Below, piece after piece: positions 1 to 57,607 of a stretch of DNA of 64,000 nucleotides. The notes under the pieces were generated by a model. It saw nothing but the letters and a program-made list of their open reading frames with translations. It did not search any database and had not been told where the DNA came from. Origin of the DNA: Candidatus Doudnabacteria bacterium RIFCSPHIGHO2_01_FULL_46_14 (GTDB taxonomy: Bacteria; Patescibacteriota; Doudnabacteria; UBA920; 2-01-FULL-46-14); the NCBI GenBank assembly GCA_001779925.1, contig MFEK01000014.1, forward strand, positions 1,011-65,010. The letters are read 5' to 3'. The first letter of the stretch is position 1, and each line of letters begins with the position of its first letter. The position numbers were made by a program, and so were the translations under genes.

Positions 1-14
1 ACATTGGAGCATAA

Positions 15-3833: not shown

Positions 3834-3872
3834 GACTCTCTTGATCTAGTCTCTCTTGAGACAGAAAGCAAT

Positions 3873-3910: not shown

Positions 3911-3940
3911 GTAAAAATTTTGTTAGATTATTTATTATAC

Positions 3941-4639
3941 ATGCGCAAATACATAAAGATAGTAATAATCATGCTAATAGCGGCTGGCGCTGTGTTTGCT
4001 TTCACCAGACTGAATAAACCTCAGAATGATGAGCCGGATATAGAGGCCATGAAAGACAGCATTGCCGCGGACCCGGCTGTCCGTGCTGACCATCTGAACG
4101 CCGAACAGATTGAACAACGGCTGGCGCAGTTCCGTACGGCCAGGGATCAGGTGGTGGCAGCCAATTTTGACTCTTTGCAAGGAATTAACGAGATCGCGCT
4201 TCTCAAACAGCAATTAGGCGATTTTGAGGGCGCGAGAATCGCCTGGGAATACGCGAACATCATCCGTCCGAAAAACTCTTTGTCGTTTTCCAACCTCGCG
4301 GCTCTTTATCATTTTGATCTGAAACAGTATGACAAGGCTGAGAAAAATTATCTCATCTCCATTGCCAATGATCCGGACGACATCCCGACTATCCGCAATT
4401 TTTTTGAGCTATATTATAATGCAATCAAGGATAATGCAAAAACGGAAGCCTTGCTTTTGAGATCAATACAGAACAACCCTGATCGCAGTGATTTGTATGC
4501 TCTGGCCGGCGGTTTTTATCGGGATACTGGCAACATTGGCAGAGCGCTTGAATATTTTAAAAAGAGTTTGGAAATCAGTCCAAACAATGAAGCTGTGAAA
4601 AATGAAATCATCCGGCTGGAAGCCCAAAATAAGCAGTAA
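3941..4639 (+). CDS. TPR-repeat protein with N-terminal membrane anchor
   Basis: ATG at 3941 (MRKYIKIVIIMLIAAGAVFAF = TM helix); the track's TTG start at 3884 lies inside the terminator hairpin. TPR-like periodicity (ALLKQQLGDFEGARIAWEYANI..., LYALAGGFYRDTGNIGRALEYFKKSLEI). Confidence 0.6.
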   Translation: MRKYIKIVIIMLIAAGAVFAFTRLNKPQNDEPDIEAMKDSIAADPAVRADHLNAEQIEQRLAQFRTARDQVVAANFDSLQGINEIALLKQQLGDFEGARIAWEYANIIRPKNSLSFSNLAALYHFDLKQYDKAEKNYLISIANDPDDIPTIRNFFELYYNAIKDNAKTEALLLRSIQNNPDRSDLYALAGGFYRDTGNIGRALEYFKKSLEISPNNEAVKNEIIRLEAQNKQ

Positions 4640-4641
4640 AA

Positions 4642-7159: not shown

Positions 7160-7282
7160 GAGCTCAATTATCGTACAATAAATAGTAACTCCATTAGAAA
7201 TCTCTACTGAAATAATAAACTATATTACGTCTTTATGACAGCGCAGATTTCCAAATGGGGTTGAATAATAATCCAAGAAACC

Positions 7283-8113
7283 ATGCATGACAAGCATAAA
7301 ATCGGCATCGTGGGCGGTGGTGTGGTCGGCGGGGCAGTAAAGAACTTTTTCACGGAAGCCAAAGTCTACGATAAATATAAGAACCTTGATTCAATTGAAG
7401 AAGTAGCTTCCGCGCGCTTCATTTTTATCTGCGTGCCAACGCCCTTTGAAAATGGCCTGGATTTATCAATGGTGGACGACGCGGTAGCGAACGTTGTGTC
7501 TCACCTCGCGGACCCGGAAAATCAGCTTGTTGCTATCAAATCAACCGCCTGGCCGGGAACCACGCAAAGCTACCAAGATAAATATCCTGAGGCCAATTTT
7601 GCTTTTAATCCCGAGTTTCTTCGCGATAAAACTGCGAACGAAGATTTTATAAACAATGACCGGCAGATTGTGGGGTATACGAGCAAAACCAAAGACAGCC
7701 CCCTCGTGAAAGAGCTTTTGGAGATTCTACCGCGCGCGCCTTATGAAAAGATCATGCCCGCTGTAGACGCGGAAATGATTAAATATGCCGGCAATACTTT
7801 TTTGGCGCTTCAGGTGATTTTTGCCAATCAGGTTTTTGACATTTGTGAAGCTTCGGGGATCAGCTATGAGCAGGTGAAAGAAGCGGTGAAGGCGGACAAA
7901 CGAATTGGTAAAACGCACTGGGAGGTTTTTCATACAGAATCAAGCCTAGCCGCAAACATCAGTGATGCGTATCGCGGCTATGGAGGGAAATGTTTCCCCA
8001 AGGATATCAATTCGCTTATCCATGAAGGCCAAAAGATTGGAGTGGATGTGTCGCTCTTTGAGGTGGGCCGCGAGGTTAACCTCAAGCTAAATGGAGGCAA
8101 ATATGACAAATAA
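7283..8113 (+). CDS. UDP-glucose/GDP-mannose dehydrogenase-family protein, short form lacking the C-terminal UDP-binding domain
   Basis: GIVGGGVVG NAD fold; IKSTAWPGTT; FNPEFLRDKTANEDFINNDRQIVG; catalytic-Cys motif GYGGKCFPKD. Ends about 25 aa after that motif. Confidence 0.7.
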   Translation: MHDKHKIGIVGGGVVGGAVKNFFTEAKVYDKYKNLDSIEEVASARFIFICVPTPFENGLDLSMVDDAVANVVSHLADPENQLVAIKSTAWPGTTQSYQDKYPEANFAFNPEFLRDKTANEDFINNDRQIVGYTSKTKDSPLVKELLEILPRAPYEKIMPAVDAEMIKYAGNTFLALQVIFANQVFDICEASGISYEQVKEAVKADKRIGKTHWEVFHTESSLAANISDAYRGYGGKCFPKDINSLIHEGQKIGVDVSLFEVGREVNLKLNGGKYDK

Positions 8114-8909
8114 GCCTTCTTTCAAAATCGCCATTGTCGGCGGGGGAGCGGTCGGCAAGGCCATTTCGGCGTATTACGGGCGGGTAAAAATCTACGATAA
8201 ATATCATCCGGTGGATTCGCTTGATGAGGTCTGCGATGCTGATTATATCTTCGTGGCTGTGCCTACGCCATTCGATGATGCCAAAGGCCAGCCGGATTTA
8301 ACAGAAATGGATGATGTTCTGACAGTACTTGCCAAAAATATGAAACGGCCGGCCGAACAGGTGGTAATCATCAAATCAACAGTGTTTCCCGGAACAACCC
8401 ATGGTTATCAGGAGAAATTTCCCAGTCTAAATCTGATTTTCAATCCCGAGTTTTTAACGGAAAAGACAGCGGTTGAAGATTTCGCCAGGCCTGACAAACA
8501 GCTCGTGGGTTTCACATCCAAATCCGTCGAGTTTGCAGAAAAGGCGATGAGCATCCTGCCGCGGGCGCCTTACGAAAAGATCATGCATGCCAGGGCTGCA
8601 GAAATGACTAAATATGTTATCAATACCTACTATGCTTTTAAGGTTATATTCGGTAATTCTATTTATGATCTATGCCAGAAAACCGGCGCTGATTACGATC
8701 AGGTGCGAGAGGGTTTGGTGCGCGATAAGCGAATCATTGATTCTCATTTTGACGTTTTGCACGGCGGATATCGCGGTTACGGCGGCAAATGCCTGCCAAA
8801 AGATGTGAAGACCCTTGCCTGGTTTGGCAGCAAAAACGGCAAGCCCGTAAAATTTATCGAAACTATTATTAAACTGAACGAAAAACTGGCATGGCAAAAG
8901 CACTTGTAA
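8103..8909 (+). CDS. Second tandem UDP-glucose-dehydrogenase-family paralog, also a short form
   Basis: FKIAIVGGGAVG, IKSTVFPGTT, FNPEFLTEKTAVEDFARPDKQLVG, GYGGKCLPKD. ATG at 8103 gives a small overlap with the previous gene. Confidence 0.7.
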   Translation: MTNKPSFKIAIVGGGAVGKAISAYYGRVKIYDKYHPVDSLDEVCDADYIFVAVPTPFDDAKGQPDLTEMDDVLTVLAKNMKRPAEQVVIIKSTVFPGTTHGYQEKFPSLNLIFNPEFLTEKTAVEDFARPDKQLVGFTSKSVEFAEKAMSILPRAPYEKIMHARAAEMTKYVINTYYAFKVIFGNSIYDLCQKTGADYDQVREGLVRDKRIIDSHFDVLHGGYRGYGGKCLPKDVKTLAWFGSKNGKPVKFIETIIKLNEKLAWQKHL

Positions 8910-9805
8910 CCGGCGGCGCGGGGTTCATCGGCTCGCATATCGCGGATCGACTGATCAATGATGGTCATGAAGTAATCATTCTTGATAATTTTTCGACTGG
9001 CAAAAGAGAGAACGTAAATCCGAAAGCCAAACTCGTGGAATGTGATATTGCTGACTATGAGGTGATAGAGCCACATTTTGAAGGAGTAGAAGTAGTGTTT
9101 CATACGGCAGCGTTAGCGCGCATTACACCATCGGTGAAAGACCCCCTTCCTTCGCACGCCGCAAATGCCACAGGCACTCTGAATGTTTTGTGGGCGTCAA
9201 AAAATGCTGCCGTAAAAAAAGTTGTTTACTCCTCAACCTCTTCTATTTACGGCGACCAGGAGATTGAAGACTATCCACTCAGTGAAACTCTGGAGCCGCG
9301 ACCGGGCAGTGCTTATTCAGCGCAGAAATATATGGGTGAGTTGTATTGTAAATTATTTAATAAATTTTACAAGCTTGATACAGCAATCCTGCGGTACTTT
9401 AATGTTTATGGTCCACGCCAGCTCACAGAGGGCGCTTATGCAACAGTTATTGGTATATTTATCAAGCATCGCGAACAAGGGAAACCAATGACTATCGTGG
9501 CTGATGCAGGAGAAAGGCGCAGAGACTATACTCATATTTCAGATGTGGTGGAGGCCAACATTTTTGCATGGCATGCCCAGATTCCCAGAGGTGAATTGTT
9601 TAATATCGGCTGCGGTAAAAATTATAGTGTTAATGAAGTAGCTGCTATGATCGGCGGTCCCACGGAAAAAATTGATGCGCGTCCTTGGGAGTATCAAATT
9701 ACCTTAGCCGACAATTCTAAGGCAAAAGAATTACTCGGTTGGGAGCCGAAAATAAGTTTTGAAGAGGGGATTGCGGAATTAAAAAAAATACACAACCTGG
9801 AATGA
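8891..9805 (+). CDS. NAD-dependent nucleotide-sugar epimerase/dehydratase (extended SDR; UDP-GlcA decarboxylase / 4-epimerase-like)
   Basis: VTGGAGFIGSHIADRL Rossmann motif, catalytic YSAQKYMGE (YxxxK), about 304 aa. Confidence 0.8.
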   Translation: MAKALVTGGAGFIGSHIADRLINDGHEVIILDNFSTGKRENVNPKAKLVECDIADYEVIEPHFEGVEVVFHTAALARITPSVKDPLPSHAANATGTLNVLWASKNAAVKKVVYSSTSSIYGDQEIEDYPLSETLEPRPGSAYSAQKYMGELYCKLFNKFYKLDTAILRYFNVYGPRQLTEGAYATVIGIFIKHREQGKPMTIVADAGERRRDYTHISDVVEANIFAWHAQIPRGELFNIGCGKNYSVNEVAAMIGGPTEKIDARPWEYQITLADNSKAKELLGWEPKISFEEGIAELKKIHNLE

Positions 9806-9806
9806 C

Positions 9807-11015
9807 ATGGATAAGCCGCGCATTTTAATTTTCAGCATTGCATATGAGCCGCTGGTGGGCGGAGCAGAGCTGGCGATCAGGTACATTACTGATCGCATTT
9901 TTGATTATGAGTTTGATTTGATCACCGTGCGTTTCGACCGCGCGCATCCGAAACAAGAAAAAATCGGCAATGTCAATGTTTACCGGGTCGGTTTTGGCTC
10001 CAGACTGGGAAGGCTATTGTATCCGGCTTTCGCCCTTCGCCTCGCAAAAAAACTTCACAGCAAACAGAATTACCAAATCACCTGGGCAATAATGGCTGCA
10101 TACGCTTCTGCGGCAGCGCTCATGTTCCAAAGGCGTTTCCCGACTGTAAAATTTTTATTAACTCTTCAGGAAGGGGATACCATCGAACACATCCACAGTC
10201 GGGTAAAAGGATTTAAAAAGGTTTGGCAACAATCATTCAAAAAAGCTGACTATATACAGGTAATCAGTAAATTTTTGGCCCAATGGGCAGTCAAAGAAGG
10301 CGCGACTTGTCCGGTAGAGGTGGTGCCGAATGGGGTCGACTTAGAAAAATTCAAAATTCAAAACTCAAATGTCAAAATTGCAAATCAAAATTCAAAATTT
10401 ACTATCATCACAGCTTCGCGGTTAGTGCATAAGAATGGAATAGATATTTTGATTCATGCTGTTTCTAAACTTCAGACTTCAAACTTCCAACTTCAAATCC
10501 TCGGCGCTGGGCCAGAAGAAGCAAGATTGAAAAAACTAGCCGCAGATTTGAAAATCGCAGATCGCATTGAGTTCCTCGGCAACATTTCTCAGGAAGAGCT
10601 GCCTAAATATTTGTCGGAGTCGGACATTTTTGTGAGACCCTCACGCTCGGAAGGCTTAGGCACGGCTTTTTTGGAAGCTATGGCTGCAGGTTTGCCGATT
10701 ATTGGAACTCCTGTCGGCGGCATACCTGATTTCCTCCACCCCCACCTAACCTCTCCCCTCAAGGGGGAGAAAAATGCAGAGAAGTCCGGTATTATTCCCC
10801 TCCCTCGAGGGGAGGGTGAACCAAATGGATTATTTTGTAAAGCTGATGACCCCGCTGATCTAGCTGAGAAAATCAAAATACTGATGCAAGATTCCGACTT
10901 GAGAAAGAAATTAGGACAAAATGGGAAAAGACTAGTAGAAGAGCAATATTCCTGGGATATAGTGGACGGGAAGATGAAGGGGATTTTTAGTAAAATTTTA
11001 TATTTTAAATTGTAA
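9807..11015 (+). CDS. Glycosyltransferase family 4 with a 30-aa in-frame repeat-element insert
   Basis: GT4 motif EGLGTAFLEAMAAGLPIIGTPVGGIPDFL followed by the insert HPHLTSPLKGEKNAEKSGIIPLPRGEGEPN, then GLFCKADDP.LAEKI. Low-complexity linker KFKIQNSNVKIANQNSKF. Confidence 0.8.
   Translation: MDKPRILIFSIAYEPLVGGAELAIRYITDRIFDYEFDLITVRFDRAHPKQEKIGNVNVYRVGFGSRLGRLLYPAFALRLAKKLHSKQNYQITWAIMAAYASAAALMFQRRFPTVKFLLTLQEGDTIEHIHSRVKGFKKVWQQSFKKADYIQVISKFLAQWAVKEGATCPVEVVPNGVDLEKFKIQNSNVKIANQNSKFTIITASRLVHKNGIDILIHAVSKLQTSNFQLQILGAGPEEARLKKLAADLKIADRIEFLGNISQEELPKYLSESDIFVRPSRSEGLGTAFLEAMAAGLPIIGTPVGGIPDFLHPHLTSPLKGEKNAEKSGIIPLPRGEGEPNGLFCKADDPADLAEKIKILMQDSDLRKKLGQNGKRLVEEQYSWDIVDGKMKGIFSKILYFKL
10347..10400. 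repeat. A-rich CAAAAT-type low-complexity repeat inside GT4 linker (arm 1 of an inverted pair)
   Basis: AAAATTCAAAATTCAAAACTCAAATGTCAAAATTGCAAATCAAAATTCAAAATTT. Confidence 0.5.
10733..10822. repeat. In-frame GC-rich palindromic element (about 90 bp) within GT4 gene 9807..11015
   Basis: CCTCCACCCCCACCTAACCTCTCCCCTCAAGGGGGAG...CCCCTCCCTCGAGGGGAGGG. Two hairpins. Encodes HPHLTSPLKGEKNAEKSGIIPLPRGEGEP. Confidence 0.75.
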
Positions 11016-11048
11016 TTTTGCATTTTGATTTTTCAATTTTGAATTTCC
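11013..11048. repeat. Inverted copy (about 85% identical) of the 10347-10400 repeat, intergenic
   Basis: TAATTTTGCATTTTGATTTTTCAATTTTGAATTTCC is the reverse complement of AAATTCAAAATTGAAAAATCAAAATGCAAAATT. Confidence 0.5.
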
Positions 11049-11049
11049 T

Positions 11050-12723
11050 ATGACCAAGCTTCAAAAACAATTACTCGCCGGCATTTTATTGCTTGCAGCT
11101 GTGCTGATTTTTTTCCGGCTCACGCGGCACGACCCACTCGGCGATGACGCGCATTATTCTTTCCGCGCAATAGGTTATTTTGATTATCTTGGTTCCAAAG
11201 AGCAGACCACGCCCGTGCAGTGGTTCGGACACCGGCCAGCCTGGTCGTATCTGTCATTCCACGATCATCCGCCCCTGGTGTTTTTGATCCAGCATATTTT
11301 TTTTAGTATTTTCGGGGTGTCGTTGTTTGTGTCTCGTTTGCCGTCGGCCCTGGCCGCCCTGGGCTCGGTATTGGTCATATTTTTTATAGCCAAGCGCCTG
11401 GCTGGCCCCAAAGCCGGGCTGGCCGCCGCCCTGGCTTTGGCTGTAAACAATTATTTTATCTGGACCGGGCGAATCGCTCTTCTCGAAAGCGTCTTTATTT
11501 TTTTCCTGCTCCTGTCTTTTCTATATTTGCTGAAAACGTTTGAGGATTCGAAATATTTTATTCACACCGGTCTTTTTTTCGGCCTGAGCTTGCTTTCCAA
11601 ATATACCGTGCTGTTTATCCTGCCTGCGGTGCTTTTGTTTCTGGTCTGGAAGCACCGATGGATTTTTAAAAATAAAAGATTCTGGCAGGGAATGATGGTA
11701 TTTTTGGTTTTGTGCCTTCCCGTGGTGATTTATAATCTCATGATGTTCAAAACTCGGGGCCATTTCGACGTGCAGTTTGCGGATTTATTCGGGCAGGTTC
11801 ATAATGACTGGCCGAAACTCGCAATGCGAATCAGCAAACCTGATCCGAATTTTTTGGGCGTTTTGACCACGATAGCCGATGGTTTTTCTTGGCCTTATTT
11901 TGCGGCGTTTATTTTGAGCATTTTTTTCAGCCTGCATCTGGCCAGACGCGCTGCCGCAGTCTACCTTTTTGTTTTCGCGGCAGTGTCCTTGTTTTTCTTT
12001 TTTGCCTTTGCCGGCGGAGCTGTCCGGTGGATGGGAGTGCTGGCGCCTTTTGCGGCCCTGCTCGTTGGTTTGGCAGCTGCGGCGTTTGCAGAGCGTAAAA
12101 AATATCTTGCCGCCGCCGTAGCTATTCCGTTTGCCGTCTTTTCAATTTTTTATACATGGAACACCAATCATCTGAAGCGCCCGGTCGCAGGCCCGAATTG
12201 GTATGCCGGATTTCGTTTGGAAAATTACGGGTACAATCAGCTCGACAAGGAAATCTCAAAACTGCTCACTGGCAAAAAACCAACGCCGAAAATTAAATAC
12301 GCGACGACCCAATGGTGGTACCGCGATCTTGATGAAAAAGCAATCGAGTTCCCTATCATTAATCAAGGGGCAGGAGTTTTCGGCTCAGCGATTATCGTTG
12401 ATTCCGAGCACATCTGGTTTCCTATGTATTGGGCCAAAGAAAAATGGAAATTCTATCACCGATTTTCCATTAAAACCTCAAACGAGTTTTTGCAGGTTGT
12501 TGATGCTAAGGGCGGACTCGAGATTATCAATTTTGTGCAGTTTGATAAAATTTACTATTTTAAATCCGGCCCGCGGATCAGGGAGACCGCTGATTTGAAA
12601 TATGAGGGATCTGATCCGCTTTTTGAAGCGATTCTAAAAAAAGGGATCTTACCCAAAATCATTTATGACGACCAGGGCAATGAAGCGTTTTATATGTATG
12701 AAACAAGCGAGCTGGCCATATGA
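11050..12723 (+). CDS. GT-C fold membrane glycosyltransferase (PMT/ArnT-like), second paralog
   Basis: Polytopic membrane protein, N-terminal loop DDAHYSF (DE motif). Ends with TGA that is the first base triplet of junction element J1. Confidence 0.55.
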   Translation: MTKLQKQLLAGILLLAAVLIFFRLTRHDPLGDDAHYSFRAIGYFDYLGSKEQTTPVQWFGHRPAWSYLSFHDHPPLVFLIQHIFFSIFGVSLFVSRLPSALAALGSVLVIFFIAKRLAGPKAGLAAALALAVNNYFIWTGRIALLESVFIFFLLLSFLYLLKTFEDSKYFIHTGLFFGLSLLSKYTVLFILPAVLLFLVWKHRWIFKNKRFWQGMMVFLVLCLPVVIYNLMMFKTRGHFDVQFADLFGQVHNDWPKLAMRISKPDPNFLGVLTTIADGFSWPYFAAFILSIFFSLHLARRAAAVYLFVFAAVSLFFFFAFAGGAVRWMGVLAPFAALLVGLAAAAFAERKKYLAAAVAIPFAVFSIFYTWNTNHLKRPVAGPNWYAGFRLENYGYNQLDKEISKLLTGKKPTPKIKYATTQWWYRDLDEKAIEFPIINQGAGVFGSAIIVDSEHIWFPMYWAKEKWKFYHRFSIKTSNEFLQVVDAKGGLEIINFVQFDKIYYFKSGPRIRETADLKYEGSDPLFEAILKKGILPKIIYDDQGNEAFYMYETSELAI

Positions 12724-12806
12724 ACCGCGTTAGAAATTTTATTCAGCATATACTCAAAAATTTATGATTACATCAGCTATTAACCAAAAGGATTTCTAAC
12801 GGGGTG
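12721..12806 (+). repeat. MITE-like gene-junction element J1 (TIR ACCGCGTTAGAAAT / ATTTCTAACGGGGT)
   Basis: Left end TGAACCGCGTTAGAAAT supplies the stop of 11050..12723. Right end AAGGATTTCTAACGGGGTGAAAA supplies the SD and GTG start of 12804..13913. Confidence 0.8.
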
Positions 12807-13913
12807 AAAATTTTAATTTGTACCGGGATTTTTCCTCCTGACGTGGGCGGTCCGGCAACCTATTCGAAAATTCTTGCAGAAGAACTGGTTAAACATGGCC
12901 ACGCGGTTAAGGTAATTACTTATGCTGGTCGTATTTATCCCCCTTCCCTTGAGAGAAGGGGGACTCTGGGAGAGGCGGATTTTGAATTGATCCGAATTCA
13001 ACGCAGCCGATTCAAACCTCTGCATTATTTCAGATTTTACCGTACCGTTCTGAAACACGGCCGAGACGTTGATGTGATTTACGCTCAAGGTCCGGTTTCA
13101 GAAGGATATCCGGCTTGTCTGGCGGCTAAGAAATTAAATAAACCACTCGCAGTAAAGATAACAGGAGATTACTCCTGGGAGCAGGCGATGGGCCGGGGTT
13201 TAACCGACGAGCTGATTGATGCGTTTCAGAACCTCTCTTTCTACCCTCCAAGAATCCAACGAATGCGCAGAATCCAGAAACTAGTTTGCGATTATGCAAA
13301 TATAATAATCACGCCCTCAGAATATTTAAAAAAGGTTGTTAGCGGTTGGGGGGTAGATCCGGGGAAAATTAGAGTTATTTATAATTCGGTAGAGATGCCA
13401 GAATCAATAATTACGAATCAAGAATCAAGACAAAAGCTAGGAATCCCCAAAGACAAATTTCTAATAGTCTCTTCTGGACGCAATGTACCGTGGAAAGGAT
13501 TTGAATTATTGAAGGAAGTTATGGCAGAATTACAGAAAGATCATCCTGAGATGATGCTGAAAATCCTGCATGATGCGCCGCGCGGGCTGCTCCATGAATA
13601 TATCCGGGCGGCAGATCTGTATGTGCTAAACACCGGCTATGAGGGGTTATCCAATACTCTCGTGGAAGTTCTGCGCCATAGGATACCTGTAATCACCACC
13701 AACGTCGGCGGCAACCCGGAGATAATCAGGGATGGCGAAAATGGGCTACTCGTGGAATACAATAATATAGAGCAGTTGAAAGACGCAATTTTGAGATTGT
13801 ACTCTGACAAAGAATTACGTAATAAATTACGTAATTCTTCCGGCCTGGAAAAATTCGATCTCGCGCAGATGATCAGTAAAACCGAGGAGGTTCTCAAACA
13901 ATGCGCGTCCTAA
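12804..13913 (+). CDS. Glycosyltransferase family 4 (GTG start from junction element)
   Basis: GT4 C-terminal domain (EGLSNTLVEVLRHRIPVITTNVGGNPEII.DGENGLLV). N-terminal-domain loop carries an in-frame GC palindromic insert (IYPPSLERRGTLGEADFE). Confidence 0.8.
   Translation: MKILICTGIFPPDVGGPATYSKILAEELVKHGHAVKVITYAGRIYPPSLERRGTLGEADFELIRIQRSRFKPLHYFRFYRTVLKHGRDVDVIYAQGPVSEGYPACLAAKKLNKPLAVKITGDYSWEQAMGRGLTDELIDAFQNLSFYPPRIQRMRRIQKLVCDYANIIITPSEYLKKVVSGWGVDPGKIRVIYNSVEMPESIITNQESRQKLGIPKDKFLIVSSGRNVPWKGFELLKEVMAELQKDHPEMMLKILHDAPRGLLHEYIRAADLYVLNTGYEGLSNTLVEVLRHRIPVITTNVGGNPEIIRDGENGLLVEYNNIEQLKDAILRLYSDKELRNKLRNSSGLEKFDLAQMISKTEEVLKQCAS
12949..12987. repeat. In-frame GC palindromic element within GT4 gene 12804..13913
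   Basis: CCCCCTTCCCTTGAGAGAAGGGGGACTCTGGGAGAGG. Encodes PPSLERRGTLGEA. Confidence 0.6.
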
Positions 13914-14989
13914 TGATCAGCCTGGACAGGGGACTTTTGGGGGCGGCCGGGTCAGGGGATGTGGCCGAGCGCCATAAAAAATATGCGAGTCTGGCAGGCG
14001 CGCTGGATATTATTGTGTTTGCGTCTCCCAAATATTCACAGCTCACGCTGGCGCCGAATCTGCGGGTATTTCCTACGCGGTCCAGCAAATTCGCGCATTT
14101 TCACCGCGCCGCGGAACTCACAAAAAAATTATTGAAAGAGAATCAGTATGACCTTTTGGTAACCCAGGAATTCACCGCGCCGGCCGGGCTGAAGATCAAA
14201 AAATTTCTTGACATTCCCTGGATCATCAATATTCACAGCATGTTTTTTTCCACGCAGTGGCTGGGGTTTAATCTTATCTATTGGTATTTGTTTTTTCTCA
14301 TGAAAAAATCCATAAGATCCGCGGACGGCTTTCGGGTTACCAATGATGCGATCAGAAAAAAGCTGACTGATTGGGGGATTGCCAAGCCGATTTTGGTGCA
14401 ACCGACGCCAGTGAATATAGAAAAGTTTAAAATAGAAAGCGGAAAGTTCAAAGTTGAAAATCAAAATCCAATAGTGCTGTATGTCGGCAGATTGGAACCT
14501 GAAAAGAATGTTTCACTTTTGATACGGGCATTCAAAAAGCTCAAGGATGAAGCCCAATTGCAGATTGTCGGCAAAGGATCGCAGGAAAAAGAATTGAGAA
14601 GATTGGCCGCCGACGATTTGCGCGTGGAATTTTTCGGAGCGAAATCCTCGGATGAATTGCCGGAGATTTACCGCAGTGCAGACATTTTTGTTCTGCCTTC
14701 AAACTCAGAGAGTTTCGGCAAAGTGCTCATAGAAGCTGGCGCGGCAGGATGCGCCCTGGTTGCGACTGAAACTGCCGGCGCCAAAAGTATTTTGGAAAAT
14801 GATGAGGCGGGGATATTGGTACCGGTTGGGGATACTGCCGCTTTGACCCGCGTTCTGCAAAACCTCGTCGGTAAAAAATTTGAACGAGAGTATTGGGGGC
14901 AAAGAGCTAGGGAAATCTCAAAAAAATACAATGCGGAGACTGCAACCCAGCGGATCATTGATCTGTGGAAGGAGGTCGCGGCAAAATGA
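13901..14989 (+). CDS. Glycosyltransferase family 4
   Basis: ESFGKVLIEAGAAGCALVATETAGAKSIL.NDEAGILVP. 13-bp overlap with the upstream gene. Confidence 0.8.
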   Translation: MRVLMISLDRGLLGAAGSGDVAERHKKYASLAGALDIIVFASPKYSQLTLAPNLRVFPTRSSKFAHFHRAAELTKKLLKENQYDLLVTQEFTAPAGLKIKKFLDIPWIINIHSMFFSTQWLGFNLIYWYLFFLMKKSIRSADGFRVTNDAIRKKLTDWGIAKPILVQPTPVNIEKFKIESGKFKVENQNPIVLYVGRLEPEKNVSLLIRAFKKLKDEAQLQIVGKGSQEKELRRLAADDLRVEFFGAKSSDELPEIYRSADIFVLPSNSESFGKVLIEAGAAGCALVATETAGAKSILENDEAGILVPVGDTAALTRVLQNLVGKKFEREYWGQRAREISKKYNAETATQRIIDLWKEVAAK

Positions 14990-15570
14990 CATCTTGGGAA
15001 AAATTCTTTGACGAAAAAATCCGGGAGATAGCCAAGGAAAATTATATTGTGGACGTGGGCAGCGGCCTCAAATTCGGTAAGCACATGAAGCAATACGAAA
15101 CGTTATTTGCCGGAAAAAAGTTTTTGACGTTTGATAAGGAAGGCACTTATCGACCCGATATTGTCGGCGACATTCACGCGATCCCGCTTCCGGACGCTTC
15201 GGTAGACGCCGTGCTCTGCAACGCGGTTTTAGAGCATGTGGAAGAGCCGGGGAAAGCCGTCGCCGAGATACACAGAATCTTAAAGCCGGGCGGCAAGGCT
15301 TTTTTCTATGTCCCGTTTTTGTATCCTTATCATGCGGAAAAACGGATTTACAAGGATTTTTACAGATTCAGCAAAGATGGGGTAGAATACCTCCTGCGCA
15401 ATTTTTCTAAGCTGGAATATGTTCCGGTGCGCGGTTTTGCGGAAATGTGGCTGTATTTCCTGCCGTTTCGTCTTAACCGGCTTTTGAGCCCGGTCGGCCG
15501 CATCCTTGATTCGCTCCTAAAAAGAGGCGGCAACCAGACCTCAGGTTTTAATATTTTCGTTATCAAATGA
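14986..15570 (+). CDS. Class I SAM-dependent methyltransferase (Methyltransf_11-like)
   Basis: VDVGSG...; DAVLCNAVLEHVEEPGKAVAEIHRILKPGGKAFF. ATGA stop/start overlap with the upstream gene. Confidence 0.7.
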   Translation: MTSWEKFFDEKIREIAKENYIVDVGSGLKFGKHMKQYETLFAGKKFLTFDKEGTYRPDIVGDIHAIPLPDASVDAVLCNAVLEHVEEPGKAVAEIHRILKPGGKAFFYVPFLYPYHAEKRIYKDFYRFSKDGVEYLLRNFSKLEYVPVRGFAEMWLYFLPFRLNRLLSPVGRILDSLLKRGGNQTSGFNIFVIK

Positions 15571-16634: not shown

Positions 16635-16717
16635 ATCCCGTTAGAAATCTATTTTTCCACAATAATTGCAAATTTTTATGAACTCTGCTATTAACTATAA
16701 GGATTTCTAACTGGGTG
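16632..16717 (+). repeat. MITE-like gene-junction element J2
   Basis: TGAATCCCGTTAGAAAT ... AAGGATTTCTAACTGGGTGAAAA. The interior shares AAATTTTTATGA..CTATTAAC..AAGG with J1. Confidence 0.8.
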
Positions 16718-17878: not shown

Positions 17879-17975
17879 ATCCCGTTAGAAATCAGAAGCA
17901 GAAAATTAGAGGTAAATTATGATTAATTATGAAATGGATTCAGAAGAAAAAAAGACCCGAATTTCTAACGGGGTG
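17876..17975 (+). repeat. MITE-like gene-junction element J3
   Basis: TGAATCCCGTTAGAAAT ... CCGAATTTCTAACGGGGTGAATAAA. Confidence 0.8.
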
Positions 17976-18689: not shown

Positions 18690-19702
18690 CGATTTGTTTT
18701 TTCGGCAATTACATTCCAGATTATCCGCGCATAGTAGTATTGAAAAAAGGATTTGCGGCCAATGGAGTGAAGGTTCTCGAATGCCACACCCGCAAAACCG
18801 GTGTTGCGAAATATATTGACCTCTGGCAGCAGCATCGTAAATTCAAAAATGATTATGATGTCCTGCTCGTCACCATGGGCGCTTATACTCTTGTGCCTTT
18901 CGCGCGCAGGCTGACCAAAAAAAAGCTCATCTTTGACGCGTTTGTGTCTCTGCAAATAACAGCCGATGATCGGGGTAAAGGCAGATTTATGGCAGATTTC
19001 TGGGATGCTTATGCCTGCCGGATCGCTGACCAGGTACTACTCGACACTAATGCGCAGATTGAATATTTTGTGGCGAGGTACAATCTGCCCCGCGTGAAAT
19101 TTACCCGCGTCCCTGCCTCCGCCGACCCAGATATCTTTTTCCCTACAAGCTACCAGCTACCCCCTACCCGCTCTTTTGTTGTCCACTGGCACGGCCACAT
19201 CGTCCCTTTTCACGGATTGGAAGCTGTGATTGAAGCCGCAAATAAATTAAAAGATCACAAAGATATCGAGTTTCGGATTACCACCAGGTTCAACAGTAAA
19301 TATCAAGCGATAAAAAAGCGCATACAAGAATTGAAATTAGAAAACGTCAATTTTTTCCCGGAAACATCTTACGCGGGATTGGCCAAAGCAATTAATGAAT
19401 CAGATGTTGTTCTGGGTGTGTTTGGCACCAAAAAAAAAGCCGAGGTGGTCATCCCTAACAAGATTTATGAAGCAGTGGCCTGCAAAAAACCAGTCATCAC
19501 CCGCGATTCGAAAGCGGTTAGAGAAGTGTTCGATGAAAACTCCATGAAACTGATTCGTCCTAACAACCCCGACGAATTAGCTACCGCGATTTTGGAATTG
19601 AAACAAAATGAAGCCAAACGAAACAGCCTTGCTGAAAACGCTAATGAAATTTATACAGCAAACTTGCTGCCTGGAGCGATAACCAAGCCTTTGCTAGAAT
19701 GA
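18686..19702 (+). CDS. Putative glycosyltransferase (GT-B-like), family uncertain
   Basis: 338 aa. C-terminal NKIYEAVACKKPVITRDSKAVREVF resembles a GT-B nucleotide-sugar binding region. No confident family match from sequence alone. Confidence 0.35.
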   Translation: MTICFFGNYIPDYPRIVVLKKGFAANGVKVLECHTRKTGVAKYIDLWQQHRKFKNDYDVLLVTMGAYTLVPFARRLTKKKLIFDAFVSLQITADDRGKGRFMADFWDAYACRIADQVLLDTNAQIEYFVARYNLPRVKFTRVPASADPDIFFPTSYQLPPTRSFVVHWHGHIVPFHGLEAVIEAANKLKDHKDIEFRITTRFNSKYQAIKKRIQELKLENVNFFPETSYAGLAKAINESDVVLGVFGTKKKAEVVIPNKIYEAVACKKPVITRDSKAVREVFDENSMKLIRPNNPDELATAILELKQNEAKRNSLAENANEIYTANLLPGAITKPLLE

Positions 19703-19735
19703 TTACGTAATTAATTACGTAATCAGTTACGTAAC
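19703..19735. promoter_or_regulatory. Three tandem TTACGTAA palindromic half-site repeats (candidate operator)
   Basis: TTACGTAA at 19703-19710, 19715-19722 and 19727-19734, immediately upstream of a small AbrB/MazE-like ORF. Confidence 0.4.
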
Positions 19736-39200: not shown

Positions 39201-39836
39201 ATGAAGTGGATTGTTGTGGTCGGGGCTTTAAGCAGTTTTGGGCAACCGATTTGCAAGAGGTTGTTTGATGCTGGATTTGGCATTTATGGAGTAGGCGTGC
39301 ATCTGAAAAAAGATGTGATTTATGATCCTGCAGTGTTCTCGTTCGACAGGGTTGACATCACCAATAGGGATGATACTGCCGAATTTTTCCGCGGGATCAG
39401 GAAAAAAGAGGTAGCGGGGCTCGTCAATGCTGCGCGGTTTGTACCATCGGTGTCAGATCCAGTTCGGCTAAATCTCGAAGTATCTGTAAGAATGTGGGAG
39501 ACCAATGTTCAGGGACTCGCTTATTTAGTCGACGAATTCATGTCTTCCGCAACGCGAAACCATTGGCCGCCTCCATTGACTGTGGTCGATATCGCTGATT
39601 GCGAACAAAGAGTTGGAGTGCATCCGCTTTTTTCGGCCGCAATGAGCGCAAGACGCAGGATGGGTTTTGAGTTGGCGGCCTTATATCAGAATCTGCGGAT
39701 TAAAACCATTATCCGTAAGGCCGAGGACACGCCGGAGCAGATCGCCGAAGCCGTGGAACTTCTGATGTTCGGGCAGTGCAAAGATTTCATCGGCGAATAC
39801 ACGCCAACACCAGATTCGGACTTTGCAACGAGATAG
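39201..39836 (+). CDS. Divergent SDR-like Rossmann protein
   Basis: VVVGALSSFGQPICKRLFDAGFGIYGV glycine-rich N-terminus. Canonical SD GAGGAGG upstream. Catalytic motifs are degenerate. Confidence 0.4.
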   Translation: MKWIVVVGALSSFGQPICKRLFDAGFGIYGVGVHLKKDVIYDPAVFSFDRVDITNRDDTAEFFRGIRKKEVAGLVNAARFVPSVSDPVRLNLEVSVRMWETNVQGLAYLVDEFMSSATRNHWPPPLTVVDIADCEQRVGVHPLFSAAMSARRRMGFELAALYQNLRIKTIIRKAEDTPEQIAEAVELLMFGQCKDFIGEYTPTPDSDFATR

Positions 39837-39909: not shown

Positions 39910-39996
39910 ATGAACCCCGTTAGAAATCTTAACTTCTTACGGCGGCGACAAATTAAATGATAAGCAAATAATTAAAATAGGATTTCTAACGGGGTG
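39910..39996 (+). repeat. MITE-like gene-junction element J4
   Basis: TATGAACCCCGTTAGAAAT ... ATAGGATTTCTAACGGGGTGAAAA. Here the element's TGA does not terminate an annotated gene. Confidence 0.8.
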
Positions 39997-42227: not shown

Positions 42228-42400
42228 TGAACCCCGTTAGAAATTCTGGGTGATTGTGACGGGGTCGCATGATTAACCCCGTTAGATATATCTGTAATAA
42301 GTCCTCTAATACTGATTAATAATATGATAATAAGACAGAAATTAACGATAATATTCCATATATATCTAAGCGGGGTTAACCATTTATTTCTAACGGGGTG
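42228..42400 (+). repeat. Composite junction element J5: outer MITE-like element carrying a nested variant copy
   Basis: Outer TIRs ACCCCGTTAGAAAT (42231-42244) and ATTTCTAACGGGGTG (42386-42400). Inner element TIRs TTAACCCCGTTAGATATAT (42270-42288) and ATATATCTAAGCGGGGTTAAC (42361-42381). Confidence 0.75.
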
Positions 42401-43198
42401 AAAATTACTATCCTTGGAGCAGGCACTGACGCCTCAAATTTGCCAGGAATCGAGAACCGATTTCCGCCGGGATATTTTGTGGAGCTAGGGACAGAAAATA
42501 TTTTATTTGAATGTTCCGAGGGCGTAAGATTCAGGCTGGAACAGATGGGGCAAGATTATACTGCTATCAAGCATCTTGCCATTTCTCATTCCCATCCCGA
42601 CCACTATGTTTTGGTCCCGTTTTATCAGTCCATTCATAATAATCTTAACTGGAGCGGCCGCTATGATGAGCCGCACTTGCTGAATATCTATGCGCCGAAA
42701 AATATAACCAGAGAGTTTTGGGATATGTGGCGCATGCATCACCCCAATTTTCCAGAGGGTCTAAAAACTCCGAAATTGAATTTTATAACCATGCCAAGCG
42801 AGTGTAGGGTCGGCGATGCGAAATTATCCGGTTTTTCAGTTTACCATGGCAAAGGCCTCGTGCCTGCTGTCGCTTATAGATTGGAGGCTGGCGGTAAAGT
42901 TTTTGCGTATTCCGGGGACAGTGGAATTTGTGATGGTGTTATCGAGGCGGCGAGAAATGCTGATGTGTTTATCTGTGAAACCTCGGCAGGGATTGATGAT
43001 GAAAAAAGCGGCACTGTCTATGGCCATCTCAATCCGCGGCAAGCAGGGGAGGTAGCCAAGAGCGCGGGAGCCAAGCAAATTGTCTTTGTACATTACACTG
43101 GTCTTGATTCAGACGAAGCTATGATTGAAGACTGTAAAGTTTCGGGCTTCACTGGCAAGGTTGTTGTCGGCAAAGATTTTCAAGTTTTTGAAATATAG
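42398..43198 (+). CDS. MBL-fold metallo-hydrolase
   Basis: HLAISHSHPDHY (HxHxDH zinc motif). GTG start from junction element (MKITILGAG). Confidence 0.7.
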   Translation: MKITILGAGTDASNLPGIENRFPPGYFVELGTENILFECSEGVRFRLEQMGQDYTAIKHLAISHSHPDHYVLVPFYQSIHNNLNWSGRYDEPHLLNIYAPKNITREFWDMWRMHHPNFPEGLKTPKLNFITMPSECRVGDAKLSGFSVYHGKGLVPAVAYRLEAGGKVFAYSGDSGICDGVIEAARNADVFICETSAGIDDEKSGTVYGHLNPRQAGEVAKSAGAKQIVFVHYTGLDSDEAMIEDCKVSGFTGKVVVGKDFQVFEI

Positions 43199-43237: not shown

Positions 43238-43267
43238 CTATGTTAGCGTACTAGTACGCTAACATAG
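43238..43267. repeat. 30-bp perfect palindrome
   Basis: CTATGTTAGCGTAC-TA-GTACGCTAACATAG, with an internal nested palindrome GTACGCTA-TGT-TAGCGTAC. Confidence 0.7.
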
Positions 43268-44793: not shown

Positions 44794-45870
44794 ATGCTGG
44801 AACTACAAGGATTATTAACCCAAAAAAATATTAAGGTTTTAGTTACCGGCAATAGAGGATATATAGGTTCCGTGTTTACGGAACTGCTTTTGCAAAAAGG
44901 CCATGAAGTTATCGGATACGATGCGGGATTTTATGACGCGAACGCGCTGGCGGACCTGCCTAAACCAAACCGGCAAATCACCAAAGATATTCGCGACGCT
45001 TCTGCCGAAGATTTCGCCAACATAGAGGCCGTGGTCCATTTGGCGGCACTTTCCAATGATCCACTCGGGGACCTGGCACCTAACCTTACAGAGGAAATAA
45101 ACTTTACAGCCACGGTTCAGTTGGCCAAGCTTGCTTCCGTCGCGGGTATAAAACGATTCATCTACAGCTCGACTACGAGCATCTATGGAATAGCCAATAC
45201 GCAAACCGAGCTTGATGAAGATAGTGAAAAAAAACCGATAACCGTTTATGCCAAGGCTAAATGGGGCGCGGAGCAGGCGCTCCAAAAAATGGGTACAGAG
45301 AGTTTTACCGTGGTGTGTTTGAGGCCGTCCACGGTTTTCGGAGCCAGTCCCAGCATGCGTTGTGATATTGTGCTTAACAATCTGGTGGGTTGGGCTTACA
45401 CTACGGGTAGCATCGAAATCAAAAGCGATGGCACGCCTTGGCGGCCAATGGTGCACGTCCGAGACCTATCCCAGGCTTTTATTGCCGCGCTTGAAGCTCC
45501 TCAAGGATTAGTCGCGGGCGAGGCGTTCAATGTCGGAAGACCAGACGGCAATTTTACTGTTCGGCAGCTGGCAGAGGCGGCCGCGCGCGCGGTACCCGGA
45601 AGCAAACTGTATTTTGCCCAACATCAGGCTTTGGATTCGCGGACGTATCGCCTGAATTTTAAAAAAATCTTGACGGTATTGAAAGATTATTACCAGCCGC
45701 AGTGGGATATTGACCGTGGAGCCCGGGAGCTTGTGGATTTTTTTAAAAAAGTTAATTTTACCGAAGAACAATTTCACGGTCGCGTCTGCAACCGGCTCGC
45801 CCACATTAAATTTCTTATGGAAAACGGCCAGCTCGACGAAAATTTATATCATACAAATGAAGCTTCATAA
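44794..45870 (+). CDS. NAD-dependent NDP-sugar epimerase/dehydratase (extended SDR)
   Basis: KVLVTGNRGYIGSVFTELLLQKGHEVIGYD; YAKAKWGAE (YxxxK). Confidence 0.75.
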   Translation: MLELQGLLTQKNIKVLVTGNRGYIGSVFTELLLQKGHEVIGYDAGFYDANALADLPKPNRQITKDIRDASAEDFANIEAVVHLAALSNDPLGDLAPNLTEEINFTATVQLAKLASVAGIKRFIYSSTTSIYGIANTQTELDEDSEKKPITVYAKAKWGAEQALQKMGTESFTVVCLRPSTVFGASPSMRCDIVLNNLVGWAYTTGSIEIKSDGTPWRPMVHVRDLSQAFIAALEAPQGLVAGEAFNVGRPDGNFTVRQLAEAAARAVPGSKLYFAQHQALDSRTYRLNFKKILTVLKDYYQPQWDIDRGARELVDFFKKVNFTEEQFHGRVCNRLAHIKFLMENGQLDENLYHTNEAS

Positions 45871-46381
45871 AACCAATCTTGAGGGGGTTTATGTCGTCGA
45901 GCTTGAGCCCAAGGAAGACGAGCGCGGATCTTTTACCAGGATCTTTTGTCAAAACGAACTCTCTGGACAGGGGATTTCATTCAACATTGCCCAGTCAAAC
46001 CTGTCTATCAATAAACACAAGGGCATTTTGCGCGGCCTGCATTTTCAAAAACCGCCAAAAGCCGAAGACCGGATCGTGCAGTGTTTGAAAGGCGCGATTT
46101 ATGATGTGGCTCTCGACCTGCGGCCAGATTCGCCGACATACGGAAAATCGTTTGCCGCAGAGCTTTCCGAGTCCAACCCGAAATCAATGTATATCCCGAA
46201 AGGCGTGGCGCACGGCTTTCAAACTCTTGCGGATGACAGCCGCGTTCTTTATTTTATGTCCGAATTTTATTCGCCAGAGCATTATTTCGGAGTTCGGTGG
46301 GATGATCCGGCCCTTGGCCTCGACTGGCCGATAAAAAATCCTATTCTTTCTTCCCAAGATCAAAACTGGCCATATATATGA
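45857..46381 (+). CDS. RmlC-like cupin: NDP-4-dehydro-6-deoxyhexose 3,5-epimerase family
   Basis: ATG at 45857 (MKLHKTNLEGVYVVE...DERGSFTRIF...GILRGLHFQKPP...QCLKGAIYDVALDLR..SPTYGK). The track start at 45710 overlaps the previous gene in another frame. Confidence 0.8.
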   Translation: MKLHKTNLEGVYVVELEPKEDERGSFTRIFCQNELSGQGISFNIAQSNLSINKHKGILRGLHFQKPPKAEDRIVQCLKGAIYDVALDLRPDSPTYGKSFAAELSESNPKSMYIPKGVAHGFQTLADDSRVLYFMSEFYSPEHYFGVRWDDPALGLDWPIKNPILSSQDQNWPYI

Positions 46382-46449
46382 ACCCCGTTAGAAATGTCTG
46401 TAAATTTCAGCGAGCGGTGCATAATTAATAATTAATTTCTAACGGGGTG
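46379..46449 (+). repeat. MITE-like gene-junction element J6 (shortest copy)
   Basis: TGAACCCCGTTAGAAAT-gtctgtaaatttcagcgagcggtgcataattaataatta-ATTTCTAACGGGGTGAAAA. Confidence 0.8.
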
Positions 46450-47325
46450 AAAAAAATATTACTCATCGGCGCCACAGGGCAGCTAGGCAGCGCTATTTTA
46501 TCAGACACTCCCTCTTTTGGACTTGAGGTTGTTTATTTTCCCAAAGCCGAGCTGGACGCGGCCAACAACATTCAAGTAGAAGAAAAAATAAAAGCGACCG
46601 GGCCTGACATTCTCATTAACACTTCAGCCTACCATCTACTGCCGGAATGCGAAGAACATCCTGAGAAAGCCATGGAGGTCAATGTCGCGGCAGTGTACCG
46701 GATGGCCAAGTTGTGCAAGCAGTACGGCGTCACCTTTGTTAATTACTCTACCGATTACGTGTTTGATGGAGAGAAGGGGAGCTTGAACGCGGAAATTGAC
46801 CCGGTTCATCCTTTGCAGATTTATGGCATTTCCAAGGCTGCCGGTGAATTCGCAGTCATGGACGCGCATAAAGAAGGCAGTTTCATTATCCGCACCAGCG
46901 GGCTTTACGGCGGCCGAACAGGCAGCCGCAGCAAAGGCGGAAATTTTGTCTTGAATATCATCAAAGAAGCGCAAGGGAAAGACACGCTCGAGGTGGCCAG
47001 CGAACAGATTGTCAACCCGACCTATGCCGGACATTTAGGCGCCGCCAGCTTGCGGCTGCTTTCGAGCGGAGCCGCGCCCGGAATTTACCATTTGGCGAAC
47101 GAAGGGTATTGCAGTTGGGCGGAATTTGCCACTGAAGCTTTTCGCTTGGCTGGAAAACGGACGCGCGTAATACCGGTTGACCGGGGAGGAAAAAATGGTA
47201 TAATAACGAGACCTAAGTTCTCAGCGCTGGAAAATATCAAGGCAAAAAAACTCGGAATAAAGCTTCCTTCTTGGCAAGAGGGACTCGTTTCCTATTTTAA
47301 TTTTTTAAATTCGCCGACCAAGTAG
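46447..47325 (+). CDS. RmlD-like NDP-4-dehydrorhamnose reductase family
   Basis: MKKILLIGATGQLGSAIL; YGISKAAGE (YxxxK). GTG start from junction element. Confidence 0.8.
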   Translation: MKKILLIGATGQLGSAILSDTPSFGLEVVYFPKAELDAANNIQVEEKIKATGPDILINTSAYHLLPECEEHPEKAMEVNVAAVYRMAKLCKQYGVTFVNYSTDYVFDGEKGSLNAEIDPVHPLQIYGISKAAGEFAVMDAHKEGSFIIRTSGLYGGRTGSRSKGGNFVLNIIKEAQGKDTLEVASEQIVNPTYAGHLGAASLRLLSSGAAPGIYHLANEGYCSWAEFATEAFRLAGKRTRVIPVDRGGKNGIITRPKFSALENIKAKKLGIKLPSWQEGLVSYFNFLNSPTK

Positions 47326-48549: not shown

Positions 48550-48633
48550 ACCCCGCGTTAGAAATTTCCGATTACAACGGTATAACTATAATTATGAAAA
48601 TAATATTAACTCAAAAGGATTTCTAACGGGGTG
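48547..48633 (+). repeat. MITE-like gene-junction element J7
   Basis: TGAACCCCGCGTTAGAAAT ... AAGGATTTCTAACGGGGTGAAAA. Confidence 0.8.
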
Positions 48634-56441: not shown

Positions 56442-56592
56442 ATAAGATTAGCTTGCCCGCCTCGTCATAGCTTTTTGACCGTCCGAAGCCTTGGCGGAGG
56501 TGGAAGGGGAGGGTGATAATAATATGGCCAATAGAAAATCCAGCGAACAAAATATTCGCCATGGAGAGGTTTTTGTTTATATGAAAAAGAAA

Positions 56593-56624
56593 AACAGCGC
56601 GATTGCTATGGCAATCGCGCTGTT
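56593..56624 (-). terminator. Hairpin terminator serving the minus-strand gene (possibly bidirectional)
   Basis: AACAGCGCGATTGC-tatg-GCAATCGCGCTGTT. On the minus strand it is followed by a T-rich run (TTTTTCTTTTTC). Confidence 0.5.
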
Positions 56625-56627
56625 TCG

Positions 56628-57241: not shown

Positions 57242-57271
57242 CGTAGTACAATTCTACCGAATTGTACTACG
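57242..57271. promoter_or_regulatory. 30-bp palindromic operator candidate upstream of arsR-family gene
   Basis: CGTAGTACAATTC-TACC-GAATTGTACTACG. Confidence 0.55.
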
Positions 57272-57296: not shown

Positions 57297-57569
57297 ATGA
57301 AACGCTGGACGCAAATTTTTAAAGCTTTGGCTAATATGAACCGGTTGAAGATCATAGCATTGCTGGCTGACCGAATGCCGCTTACTGTCACGGAGATTGC
57401 TGACGAGCTTGGCATTTCTTTTCGGGCAACGTCGCGGCATTTGTTGCTTCTCAGCAGCCTGGATATTCTCGTGAGCCAAGGCAAGGACGGACATGTTTAT
57501 TATGGTTACAATAGCAGCATGCCTGTGGACATTAAAAAGATTGTCGAGCTTTTCCTTCACAACCTTTAA
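57297..57569 (+). CDS. ArsR/SmtB-family HTH transcriptional regulator
   Basis: MKRWTQIFKALANMNRLKIIALLADRMPLTVTEIADELGISFRATSRHLLLL, the classic ArsR N-terminus and HTH. SD GGTGGAGG. Confidence 0.8.
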   Translation: MKRWTQIFKALANMNRLKIIALLADRMPLTVTEIADELGISFRATSRHLLLLSSLDILVSQGKDGHVYYGYNSSMPVDIKKIVELFLHNL

Positions 57570-57577
57570 TATATACG

Positions 57578-57607
57578 CGTTGTACAATTCGGTAGAATTG
57601 TACAACG
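57578..57607. promoter_or_regulatory. Second near-identical palindromic operator candidate downstream of arsR-family gene / upstream of GT2 operon
   Basis: CGTTGTACAATTC-GGTA-GAATTGTACAACG. Same arms as the 57242 site (one A/T difference) with the centre inverted. Confidence 0.55.

Follow-up and report, generated by a model that had tools for sequence, protein, structure and literature searches.

The 71-bp feature between an rmlC-like and an rmlD-like gene of Candidatus Doudnabacteria very probably consists of a 65-bp MITE, a non-autonomous DNA transposon ending in 13-bp inverted repeats ((C/T)CCCGTTAGAAAT), and of a 4-bp duplication footprint in an ATGA(A) overlap of the two genes. The stop and the start codon at the base of its stem are the two copies of a duplicated TGAA, and the stop-stem-start geometry is best read as a transposition footprint and not as a purpose-built device. 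A hairpin between a stop and a start can accordingly be the scar of a transposon which duplicated the TGAA of an ATGA. This simpler reading supplants an attractive regulatory one. The analysis covers a stretch of 64,000 nucleotides (hereafter the window), in which the element recurs, and compares its copies with those in other genomes.

The rmlC-like gene (45857-46381, + strand; gene call and Pfam PF00908, 1.8e-61) encodes a dTDP-4-dehydrorhamnose 3,5-epimerase and ends with the stop codon TGA at 46379-46381. The rmlD-like gene (46447-47325, + strand; ORF and gene calls) encodes a dTDP-4-dehydrorhamnose reductase of 292 aa. Read directly from the window, the junction between them (J6) comprises ...CCATATATATGA, the arm ACCCCGTTAGAAAT (46382-46395), 39 nt of spacer, the arm ATTTCTAACGGGGT (46435-46448) and GAAAAAAATA.... 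The two arms are complementary at 14/14 positions, which bears out the perfect pairing reported in the initial annotation. The same annotation placed the UGA of the upstream gene 5′ and the GUG of the downstream gene 3′ of the stem base, and at J6 this is what the sequence holds.

In terms of the mobile element, all components lie on the + strand. The left target-site duplication TGAA (46379-46382) includes the rmlC stop. It is followed by the element itself (46383-46447, 65 bp), which is made of perfect 13-bp repeats, the 5′ CCCCGTTAGAAAT (46383-46395) and the 3′ ATTTCTAACGGGG (46435-46447), and of a variable AT-rich core forming the loop (46396-46434), where the arm end recurs in degenerate form (CAGCGAGCGGTG). 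The right TGAA occupies 46448-46451 in the sequence. The final G of the 3′ repeat serves as base 1 of the regenerated rmlD start codon GTG (46447-46449), which takes its TG from the right duplication and overlaps the last two bases of the arm. The original rmlD ATG is retained in the left copy (46378-46380, + strand) and is now the first codon of a 16-codon short ORF, MNPVRNVCKFQRAVHN, closed by TAA TAA at 46426-46431 (+ strand). Read from the junction GTG, the N-terminus of RmlD is MKKILLIG, in agreement with its homologues, and public gene callers use the same start.

As RNA, the stem of J6 is both the minimum-free-energy and the centroid structure (-23.9 kcal/mol, z = -4.2). It still forms in a 301-nt context. 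The 3′ arm was also said to sequester a Shine-Dalgarno sequence; on inspection it has none, merely GGGG abutting the GTG.

The arm motif, at up to two mismatches, has 16 matches in the window where 0.42 are expected, a number reached by 0/100 shuffles. These matches resolve into seven paired copies, at 12.7, 16.6, 17.9, 39.9, 42.2, 46.4 and 48.6 kb, one nested copy and one decayed copy. The elements measure 65-167 bp. All seven paired copies read (A/G)TGAA-(C/T)CCCG...CGGGG-TGAA(A/T)A, and every one of them folds into a long-range stem as RNA, at -16 to -28 kcal/mol. According to gene calls and Pfam, the surrounding locus is a large cluster of glycosyltransferase and sugar-nucleotide genes.

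Three copies on the + strand occupy true ATGA overlaps: J1 (12725-12804, with TGAA duplications at 12721-12724 and 12805-12808) leads from a PMT_2 gene to a GT4 gene, J2 (16636-16715) from a GT1 gene to a GT4 gene, and J7 (48551-48631, with a 2-nt insertion in its 5′ repeat) from a DegT aminotransferase gene to an NTP-transferase gene. J3 (17880-17973, + strand) lies at a GTGA overlap between a GT4 gene and an SDR gene and has an internal ATG (17919) in the frame of the latter. J4 (39915-39994, + strand) occupies the start codon of an SDR gene, and the ORF before that gene stops at 39836, 77 nt short of the TGA. The outer element of J5 (42232-42398, + strand) covers the start codon of an MBL-fold gene; the neighbour upstream of this gene is divergent. 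The core of J5 contains the nested copy (42277-42375, + strand; repeats CCCCGTTAGATAT and ATATCTAAGCGGGG), which bears its own flanking duplication, TTAA, at 42273-42276 and 42376-42379. The decayed eighth copy (7189-7260, no strand assigned), CTCCATTAGAAAT...ATTTCCAAATGGGG, is located in a divergent intergenic region and its duplication is no longer present. The stop-stem-start geometry had been asserted for every copy. This holds for the succession of TGA and GTG (7/7 copies), whereas the TGA is a genuine upstream stop in only five of the seven (J1, J2, J3, J6, J7); at J4 and J5 it is just bases 2-4 of a duplicated ATGAA.

When the proteins are read from the junction codons, their Pfam domains set in at residues 1-5, and the junction codon is therefore the true N-terminus. 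All GTGAA start codons of the two gene clusters (12804, 16715, 17973, 39994, 42398, 46447, 48631) are element-made. All seven are GTG because the element supplies the terminal G; GTG starts in these clusters mark insertions and are not native to the genes.

Copies in other genomes help to define the element. When one genome per species was scanned for CCGTTAGAAAT-N39-69-ATTTCTAACGG, at least 119 stretches came up, the pattern itself demanding the repeat core; more than 119 genomes share the repeats. By record title, the matches listed belong to Patescibacteria (CPR), Planctomycetota, Desulfobacterota, Omnitrophota, Elusimicrobia, KSB1, WOR-3, Gammaproteobacteria and others. The repeat pair can be written as (C/T)CCCGTTAGAAAT ... 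ATTTCTAACGGG(G/A). Among the distinct copies in the matches listed, the outer 4-mers form perfect direct repeats in 74/119 and agree at 3/4 positions in 16/119, the duplications being imperfect in 45/119, whereas a shifted-register control gives 0/119 and only 4/119 are perfect as an extension of the inverted repeat. Thirteen different 4-mers occur among these matches (TGAA 26, TAAA 23, TGGA 6, TTGA 4 and TGAG 4, but also CAAG, TGGG and CAGG). They vary and some do not have the T..A form; they therefore lie outside the element proper. The terminal base pair co-varies in the same matches (CC/GG in 75 copies, TC/GA in 35). Conservation is confined to the arms, and the cores are unrelated between lineages. 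An alternative definition with a 2-bp duplication and 14-bp repeats was rejected, as TGAG, TGGG and CAAG fail to extend the inverted repeat.

Judged by this pattern of repeats, the flanking 4-mers are true target-site duplications. In addition, Rfam has no match in the window at the gathering threshold, and the sole match with E<1 that it gives at J6, a miRNA hairpin scoring 23.8 bits where the threshold is 85, is spurious. It is the combination of terminal repeats, variable 4-bp duplications, a nested copy, arm-only conservation and the lack of an Rfam match that gives the element its MITE status. The family appears to be undescribed in the searchable literature, where we found no paper with the repeat sequence and none linking MITEs to the Candidate Phyla Radiation.

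Removal of the element and of one TGAA from J6 leaves ...ATATGAAAAAAATA... / ATATGAAAAAAATATTA, a classic ATGA stop/start overlap, with GGCCATATATATGAAAAAAATATTACTCATC as the predicted empty junction. The same in-silico excision elsewhere yields ...ATGAAAATT... and ...ATGAAAAAA..., i.e. gene starts of the ATGAAA (Met-Lys) type. Such a plain ATGA junction, in which the rmlC TGA overlaps ATGAAAAAAATT, is found in three of the closest orthologous rmlC-rmlD junctions examined (L123, L126 and L127, RmlD identity 57-63%), and further RmlD homologues begin with MKKILLIG. The nearest RmlD relative is 67% identical and none lies above. We found no filled/empty polymorphism among the 8-12 contigs with the flanking proteins, which are all identical at J1, J5 and J6 and come from the same strain. 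N-terminal extensions in RmlD homologues (LAINEEIM / MAFNE..) were considered as another element and turned out to be gene-caller starts inside the 3′ end of rmlC.

The element very probably landed in the ATGA(A) stop/start overlap of rmlC and rmlD and doubled the TGAA. The left copy keeps the rmlC stop, with the old ATG intact in front of it; the terminal G of the element, joined to the right TGAA, gives GTGAA and thereby a GTG start which preserves the former reading frame. What pairs as a stem in the co-transcribed mRNA is simply the two terminal repeats.

How could rmlD be translated across such a structure? The GUG is predicted to be paired where the stem (about -24 kcal/mol) closes, with no usable Shine-Dalgarno sequence, and translation of rmlD would therefore probably need ribosomes from upstream. 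In this folding model it is plausible that the GUG becomes accessible only once ribosomes have melted the stem, and rmlD translation probably depends on terminating or re-initiating ribosomes. The retained AUG (46378) opens the short ORF MNPVRNVCKFQRAVHN (MNPVRN...), which ends 15 nt before the GUG, and ATG-AAC-CCC-GTT-AGA-AAT is the sole stop-free frame of the 5′ arm. Ribosomes that have terminated at the UGA, or have begun anew at the retained AUG, would go on to read the 16 codons through the 5′ arm. This translation would melt the stem and bring them to 15 nt upstream of the GUG. Moreover, the retained AUG would preserve what drove rmlD initiation before the insertion, namely coupling to the rmlC UGA at -4. 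Judging from the reading frames, coupling, if any, more likely runs via the retained ATG than via the rmlC UGA alone, and likely survives only as a side-effect of the MITE. We infer that the insertion is thus largely self-neutralising.

The other copies in the window have comparable reading frames. In 7/7 an element-borne ORF ends -4 to +22 nt from the junction codon or enters the gene in frame. Internal ATGA relays are present in J1-J4, and the gap between stop and start is -4 or +4 in J1, J2, J3, J5 and J7. Across phyla the pattern is weaker: among the matches listed, the retained-ATG ORF reads fully through the core in 14/38 (21.5% in shuffles), a mild enrichment. An open in-frame ATG stands 4-9 codons before the 3′ arm in 18/55 of the matches listed, as against 15.5% in shuffles (p = 0.001) and 10/55 in the antisense control; this enrichment is suggestive, not decisive.

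The position of the element relative to genes is precise. The junction codon is the exact start of a long ORF in 7/7 copies in the window and in about 45/105 across phyla among the matches listed. TG-initial duplications (TGAA, TGGA, TGAG, TGTA, TGGG) coincide with a start codon in 28/31 of the matches listed, and TAAA in 0/21. TGAA duplications are preceded by A in 27/30 cases and by G in 3/30, again among the matches listed. The start is rebuilt by the terminal base of the element, the G-ended variant giving GTG and the A-ended variant ATG. There are 678 TGAA/TTCA sites in the window, of which 42 are non-coding, and about 19 at NTGAA gene starts. By simple arithmetic, seven insertions out of seven at starts have a probability of (19/61)^7, about 3e-4, and this outcome would therefore be unlikely were all tolerated TGAA sites equivalent.

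The orientation is equally regular. An internal partial copy of the end of the 3′ arm (TAACGGGG-like), 8-15 nt past the 5′ arm, serves as a marker; among the matches listed it is sense-only in 27 copies and antisense-only in none. The exact start register and the 27:0 orientation are odd for a passive MITE and leave room for a selected function. Both may stem from enzymatic target choice or from selection.

A wider proposal is advanced only tentatively, and we do not regard it as the probable outcome: the copies may represent a cross-phylum MITE family specialised for start codons. Its members would duplicate 4 bp from base 2 of the ATG in a single orientation, rebuild the start with their terminal base and carry their own translational patch (the short ORF of the retained ATG, an internal in-frame ATG or relay ORFs). 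They would be near-harmless and possibly seamlessly excisable, piggyBac-like passengers, and a sister subfamily (95 nt, AAGTAAA targets) would do likewise at gene ends. If this wider pattern is true, a mobile element can occupy start codons in compact CPR genomes without killing the genes. Survival of the genes would then depend on a regenerated start and a ribosome relay, an idea previously raised only for mycobacterial MIRUs.

Several variants were noticed among the copies. A subfamily of about 95 nt in Desulfobacterota (L016, L045, L057, L061, L064, L067, L071, L089, L099, L110 and others) has the same 13-bp repeats and a conserved core with two GC-rich hairpins, CCAGCGGGGCATTAAACCCCGCCGG and CCCCGCTGCAGAGCAGCGGGG followed by CATTATTTCT. 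Its flanks read (A)AGTAAA...TAAA, and its orientation relative to TAAA is constant. The subfamily may have adapted to gene ends, where it possibly brings a terminator. Some of the A-ended copies of Patescibacteria (L093, L060, L077, L051, L036, L085) have an inner hairpin, GGAAAT-loop-ATTTCC, adjoining one arm, which echoes the AGAAAT/ATTTCT of the repeat. Lastly, three stretches occur on two IMG/VR contigs (L215-L217), the only three matches among viral contigs, and viruses are a possible route between lineages.

Other explanations of the junction hairpin have been weighed against the transposition footprint. The initial annotation saw a built-in coupling device, that is, an RNA selected by the host for coupling or termination-reinitiation, which juxtaposes UGA and GUG and for which mobility is irrelevant. 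Such a device would fit the GUG sequestered by the predicted stem, the five of seven copies at real stop/start junctions, the 27:0 orientation relative to the gene among the matches listed, and the element-internal ORFs ending -4 to +22 nt from the start in 7/7 copies. We nevertheless consider it unlikely. The flanking 4-mers co-vary as variable direct repeats, which is typical of transposition, at least 119 copies being listed in other genomes; the same element stands beside unrelated genes in many phyla and also at non-start TAAA sites; no upstream gene ends at the TGA of J4 or J5; and the loop is unconserved, RmlD orthologues doing with a plain ATGA overlap. Very unlikely, in our estimate, is an RNase III/E processing site at which the operon mRNA would be cut into single-cistron pieces, each with a defined 5′ end. 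A perfect stem between cistrons would suit this role, and RNase III acts on the longer repeats of Neisseria Correia elements. However, the stem of 13-14 bp is short for RNase III, which usually needs about two helical turns, and cutting within it would strip the start codon of its context.

The remaining readings concern the hairpin as DNA or as a terminator. REP/REPIN sequences, or a palindrome derived from IS200/IS605 and moved as single-stranded DNA by an HUH enzyme (RAYT/TnpA), are likewise hairpin repeats of many copies in extragenic space. Yet these systems have no target duplication and a fixed flanking tetranucleotide, whereas the 4-mers here are duplicated and variable, and the arms of the element are not themselves palindromic REP units; an origin of this kind is highly improbable. 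A site of the integron attC type, or another site-specific recombination site delimiting gene cassettes in the polysaccharide locus, can hardly be credited. The arms do hold GTTAGAA and TTCTAAC, which resemble the core and inverse-core boxes of attC, and copies do lie between single genes, but the order is reversed: GTTAGAA...TTCTAAC is read on both strands, as against 5′-RYYYAAC ... GTTRRRY-3′ (R″/R′), and the attC reading was rejected on this ground. Moreover, the 4-bp duplications vary and the copies are scattered singly over many genomes, and no integrase is among the gene calls at window coordinates of about 1-15100 and 36447-74000. Finally, an intrinsic terminator or attenuator between rmlC and rmlD would share the stable stem in the transcript; with a 39-nt loop and no U-tract past the stem it is extremely improbable, and a terminator scan found nothing at any copy. 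In a promoter scan, promoter-like matches were not enriched.

Beyond the element, the window contains several other repeats and ORFs. An inverted repeat of 30 nt (57242-57271 / 57578-57607, 93% complementary) brackets a 90-aa ORF of the ArsR/HTH_5 type (57297-57569); the two could together form a further small unit, mobile or regulatory. Four occurrences of the palindrome ATTACGTAAT, where 0.02 are expected, are arranged as two tandem pairs with a 12-nt period at 13814-13835 and 19702-19723. Both pairs lie near gene 3′ ends, and the palindrome may bind a protein in the manner of an operator. The 230-nt spacer past the MBL-fold gene contains a perfect 15+15 palindrome, CTATGTTAGCGTACT joined to AGTACGCTAACATAG (43238-43267). 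A perfect 15-bp stem closed by a 4-nt loop (AAACAGCGCGATTGC/GCAATCGCGCTGTTT, 56592-56625) separates a PIF1-helicase gene from a convergent ORF and may act as a bidirectional terminator. Directly upstream of J4 and its full-length SDR gene, a 211-aa ORF (39201-39836) has a weak match to adh_short in its N-terminal half and may be a truncated duplicate or a pseudogene. The MBL-fold protein downstream of J5 (42398-43198) has a precomputed Pfam match to PF23023 (Anti-Pycsar Apyc1), although it lies in a polysaccharide locus.

Turning back to the MITE, the identity of its 13-bp ends across several phyla implies that a transposase is widely shared. Neither an autonomous copy nor a transposase turned up in the window, in the 10 kb adjoining it on either side or in related loci totalling about 0.9 Mb; the 10-kb extensions on both sides of the contig hold no further copies, and long-range repeat pairs without a nearby partner were not found. 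'Lone' repeats, considered as ends of an autonomous element, turned out to be diverged MITEs. The 4-bp duplication and the CCC...GGG ends point weakly, by sequence resemblance, to a DDE enzyme of the IS1380/piggyBac kind. IS1380 transposases are distant prokaryotic relatives of piggyBac (PMC10140906), whose end is TTAA followed by CCCTAGAAAGATA (PMC7351741). The element shares with this group a 4-bp duplication, T..A-type targets (one of them TTAA) and the CCC...GGG ends, T(G/A)AA being followed by CCCCGTTAGAAAT; the inverted repeat of ISEcp1 (IS1380 family) is CCTAGATTCTACGT. A duplication of 4-5 bp and CC(C) termini are indeed present, features which are not exclusive to IS1380/piggyBac. IS1247 and ISEcp1 produce 5-bp duplications. 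In contrast to piggyBac proper, with its strict TTAA target, the element has targets beyond TTAA: this 4-mer makes up 1/74 perfect duplications among the matches listed, plus the nested copy, and TGAA and TAAA dominate. The resemblance of the repeats may be due to chance.

For annotation, these findings carry a warning: a hairpin at such a junction, a GTG start or a short N-terminal extension (...ISNGV) can be MITE-derived.

Bacterial MITEs such as Correia/CREE of Neisseria, ERIC/IRU, RUP and MITEAba12 share with the element its short, non-coding, multicopy nature, terminal inverted repeats and target-site duplication, as well as co-transcription and an mRNA hairpin at gene borders. Unlike them, it has a duplication which begins at base 2 of the start codon, a terminal base which rebuilds ATG or GTG, a fixed orientation to the gene, identical 13-bp repeats in several phyla and no known partner IS.

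Small mobile repeats at start codons have been reported as mycobacterial interspersed repetitive units (MIRUs; Supply et al. 1997, as summarised in PMC12548453). In that summary, a spacing of -4 nt couples the internal ORF of a MIRU to its target gene and keeps the effect on expression to a minimum (PMC12548453). The internal ATGA relays of J1-J4 and the element ORFs which end -4 to +22 nt from the start are similar, and by analogy MIRUs would be the closest functional precedent for the relay. MIRUs are direct or tandem units of 46-101 bp which are not known to have long terminal inverted repeats or to occur outside mycobacteria. The element is neither a direct/tandem unit nor mycobacterial; it differs from MIRUs in its inverted repeats, 4-bp duplication, hairpin and distribution across phyla, Candidatus Doudnabacteria included. 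Rickettsia palindromic elements (RPE) likewise are palindromic mobile elements tolerated in expressed genes with the frame kept, and in 18/55 copies among the matches listed the in-frame ATG would extend the protein by M-x(4-8)-ISNG(V/M). The insertion sites of RPEs lie within coding sequence, whereas the present element takes the start codon instead of the coding interior.

Finally, coupling by RNA unfolding is documented for MS2 coat/lysis, f1 VII/IX and rpmI-rplT, as outlined in PMC12548453. The likeness lies in a stem which hides the downstream start and is opened by upstream translation. The structures of MS2, f1 and rpmI-rplT are encoded by host or phage and were demonstrated experimentally, whereas the stem described here is a predicted one and would be a by-product of transposon repeats.
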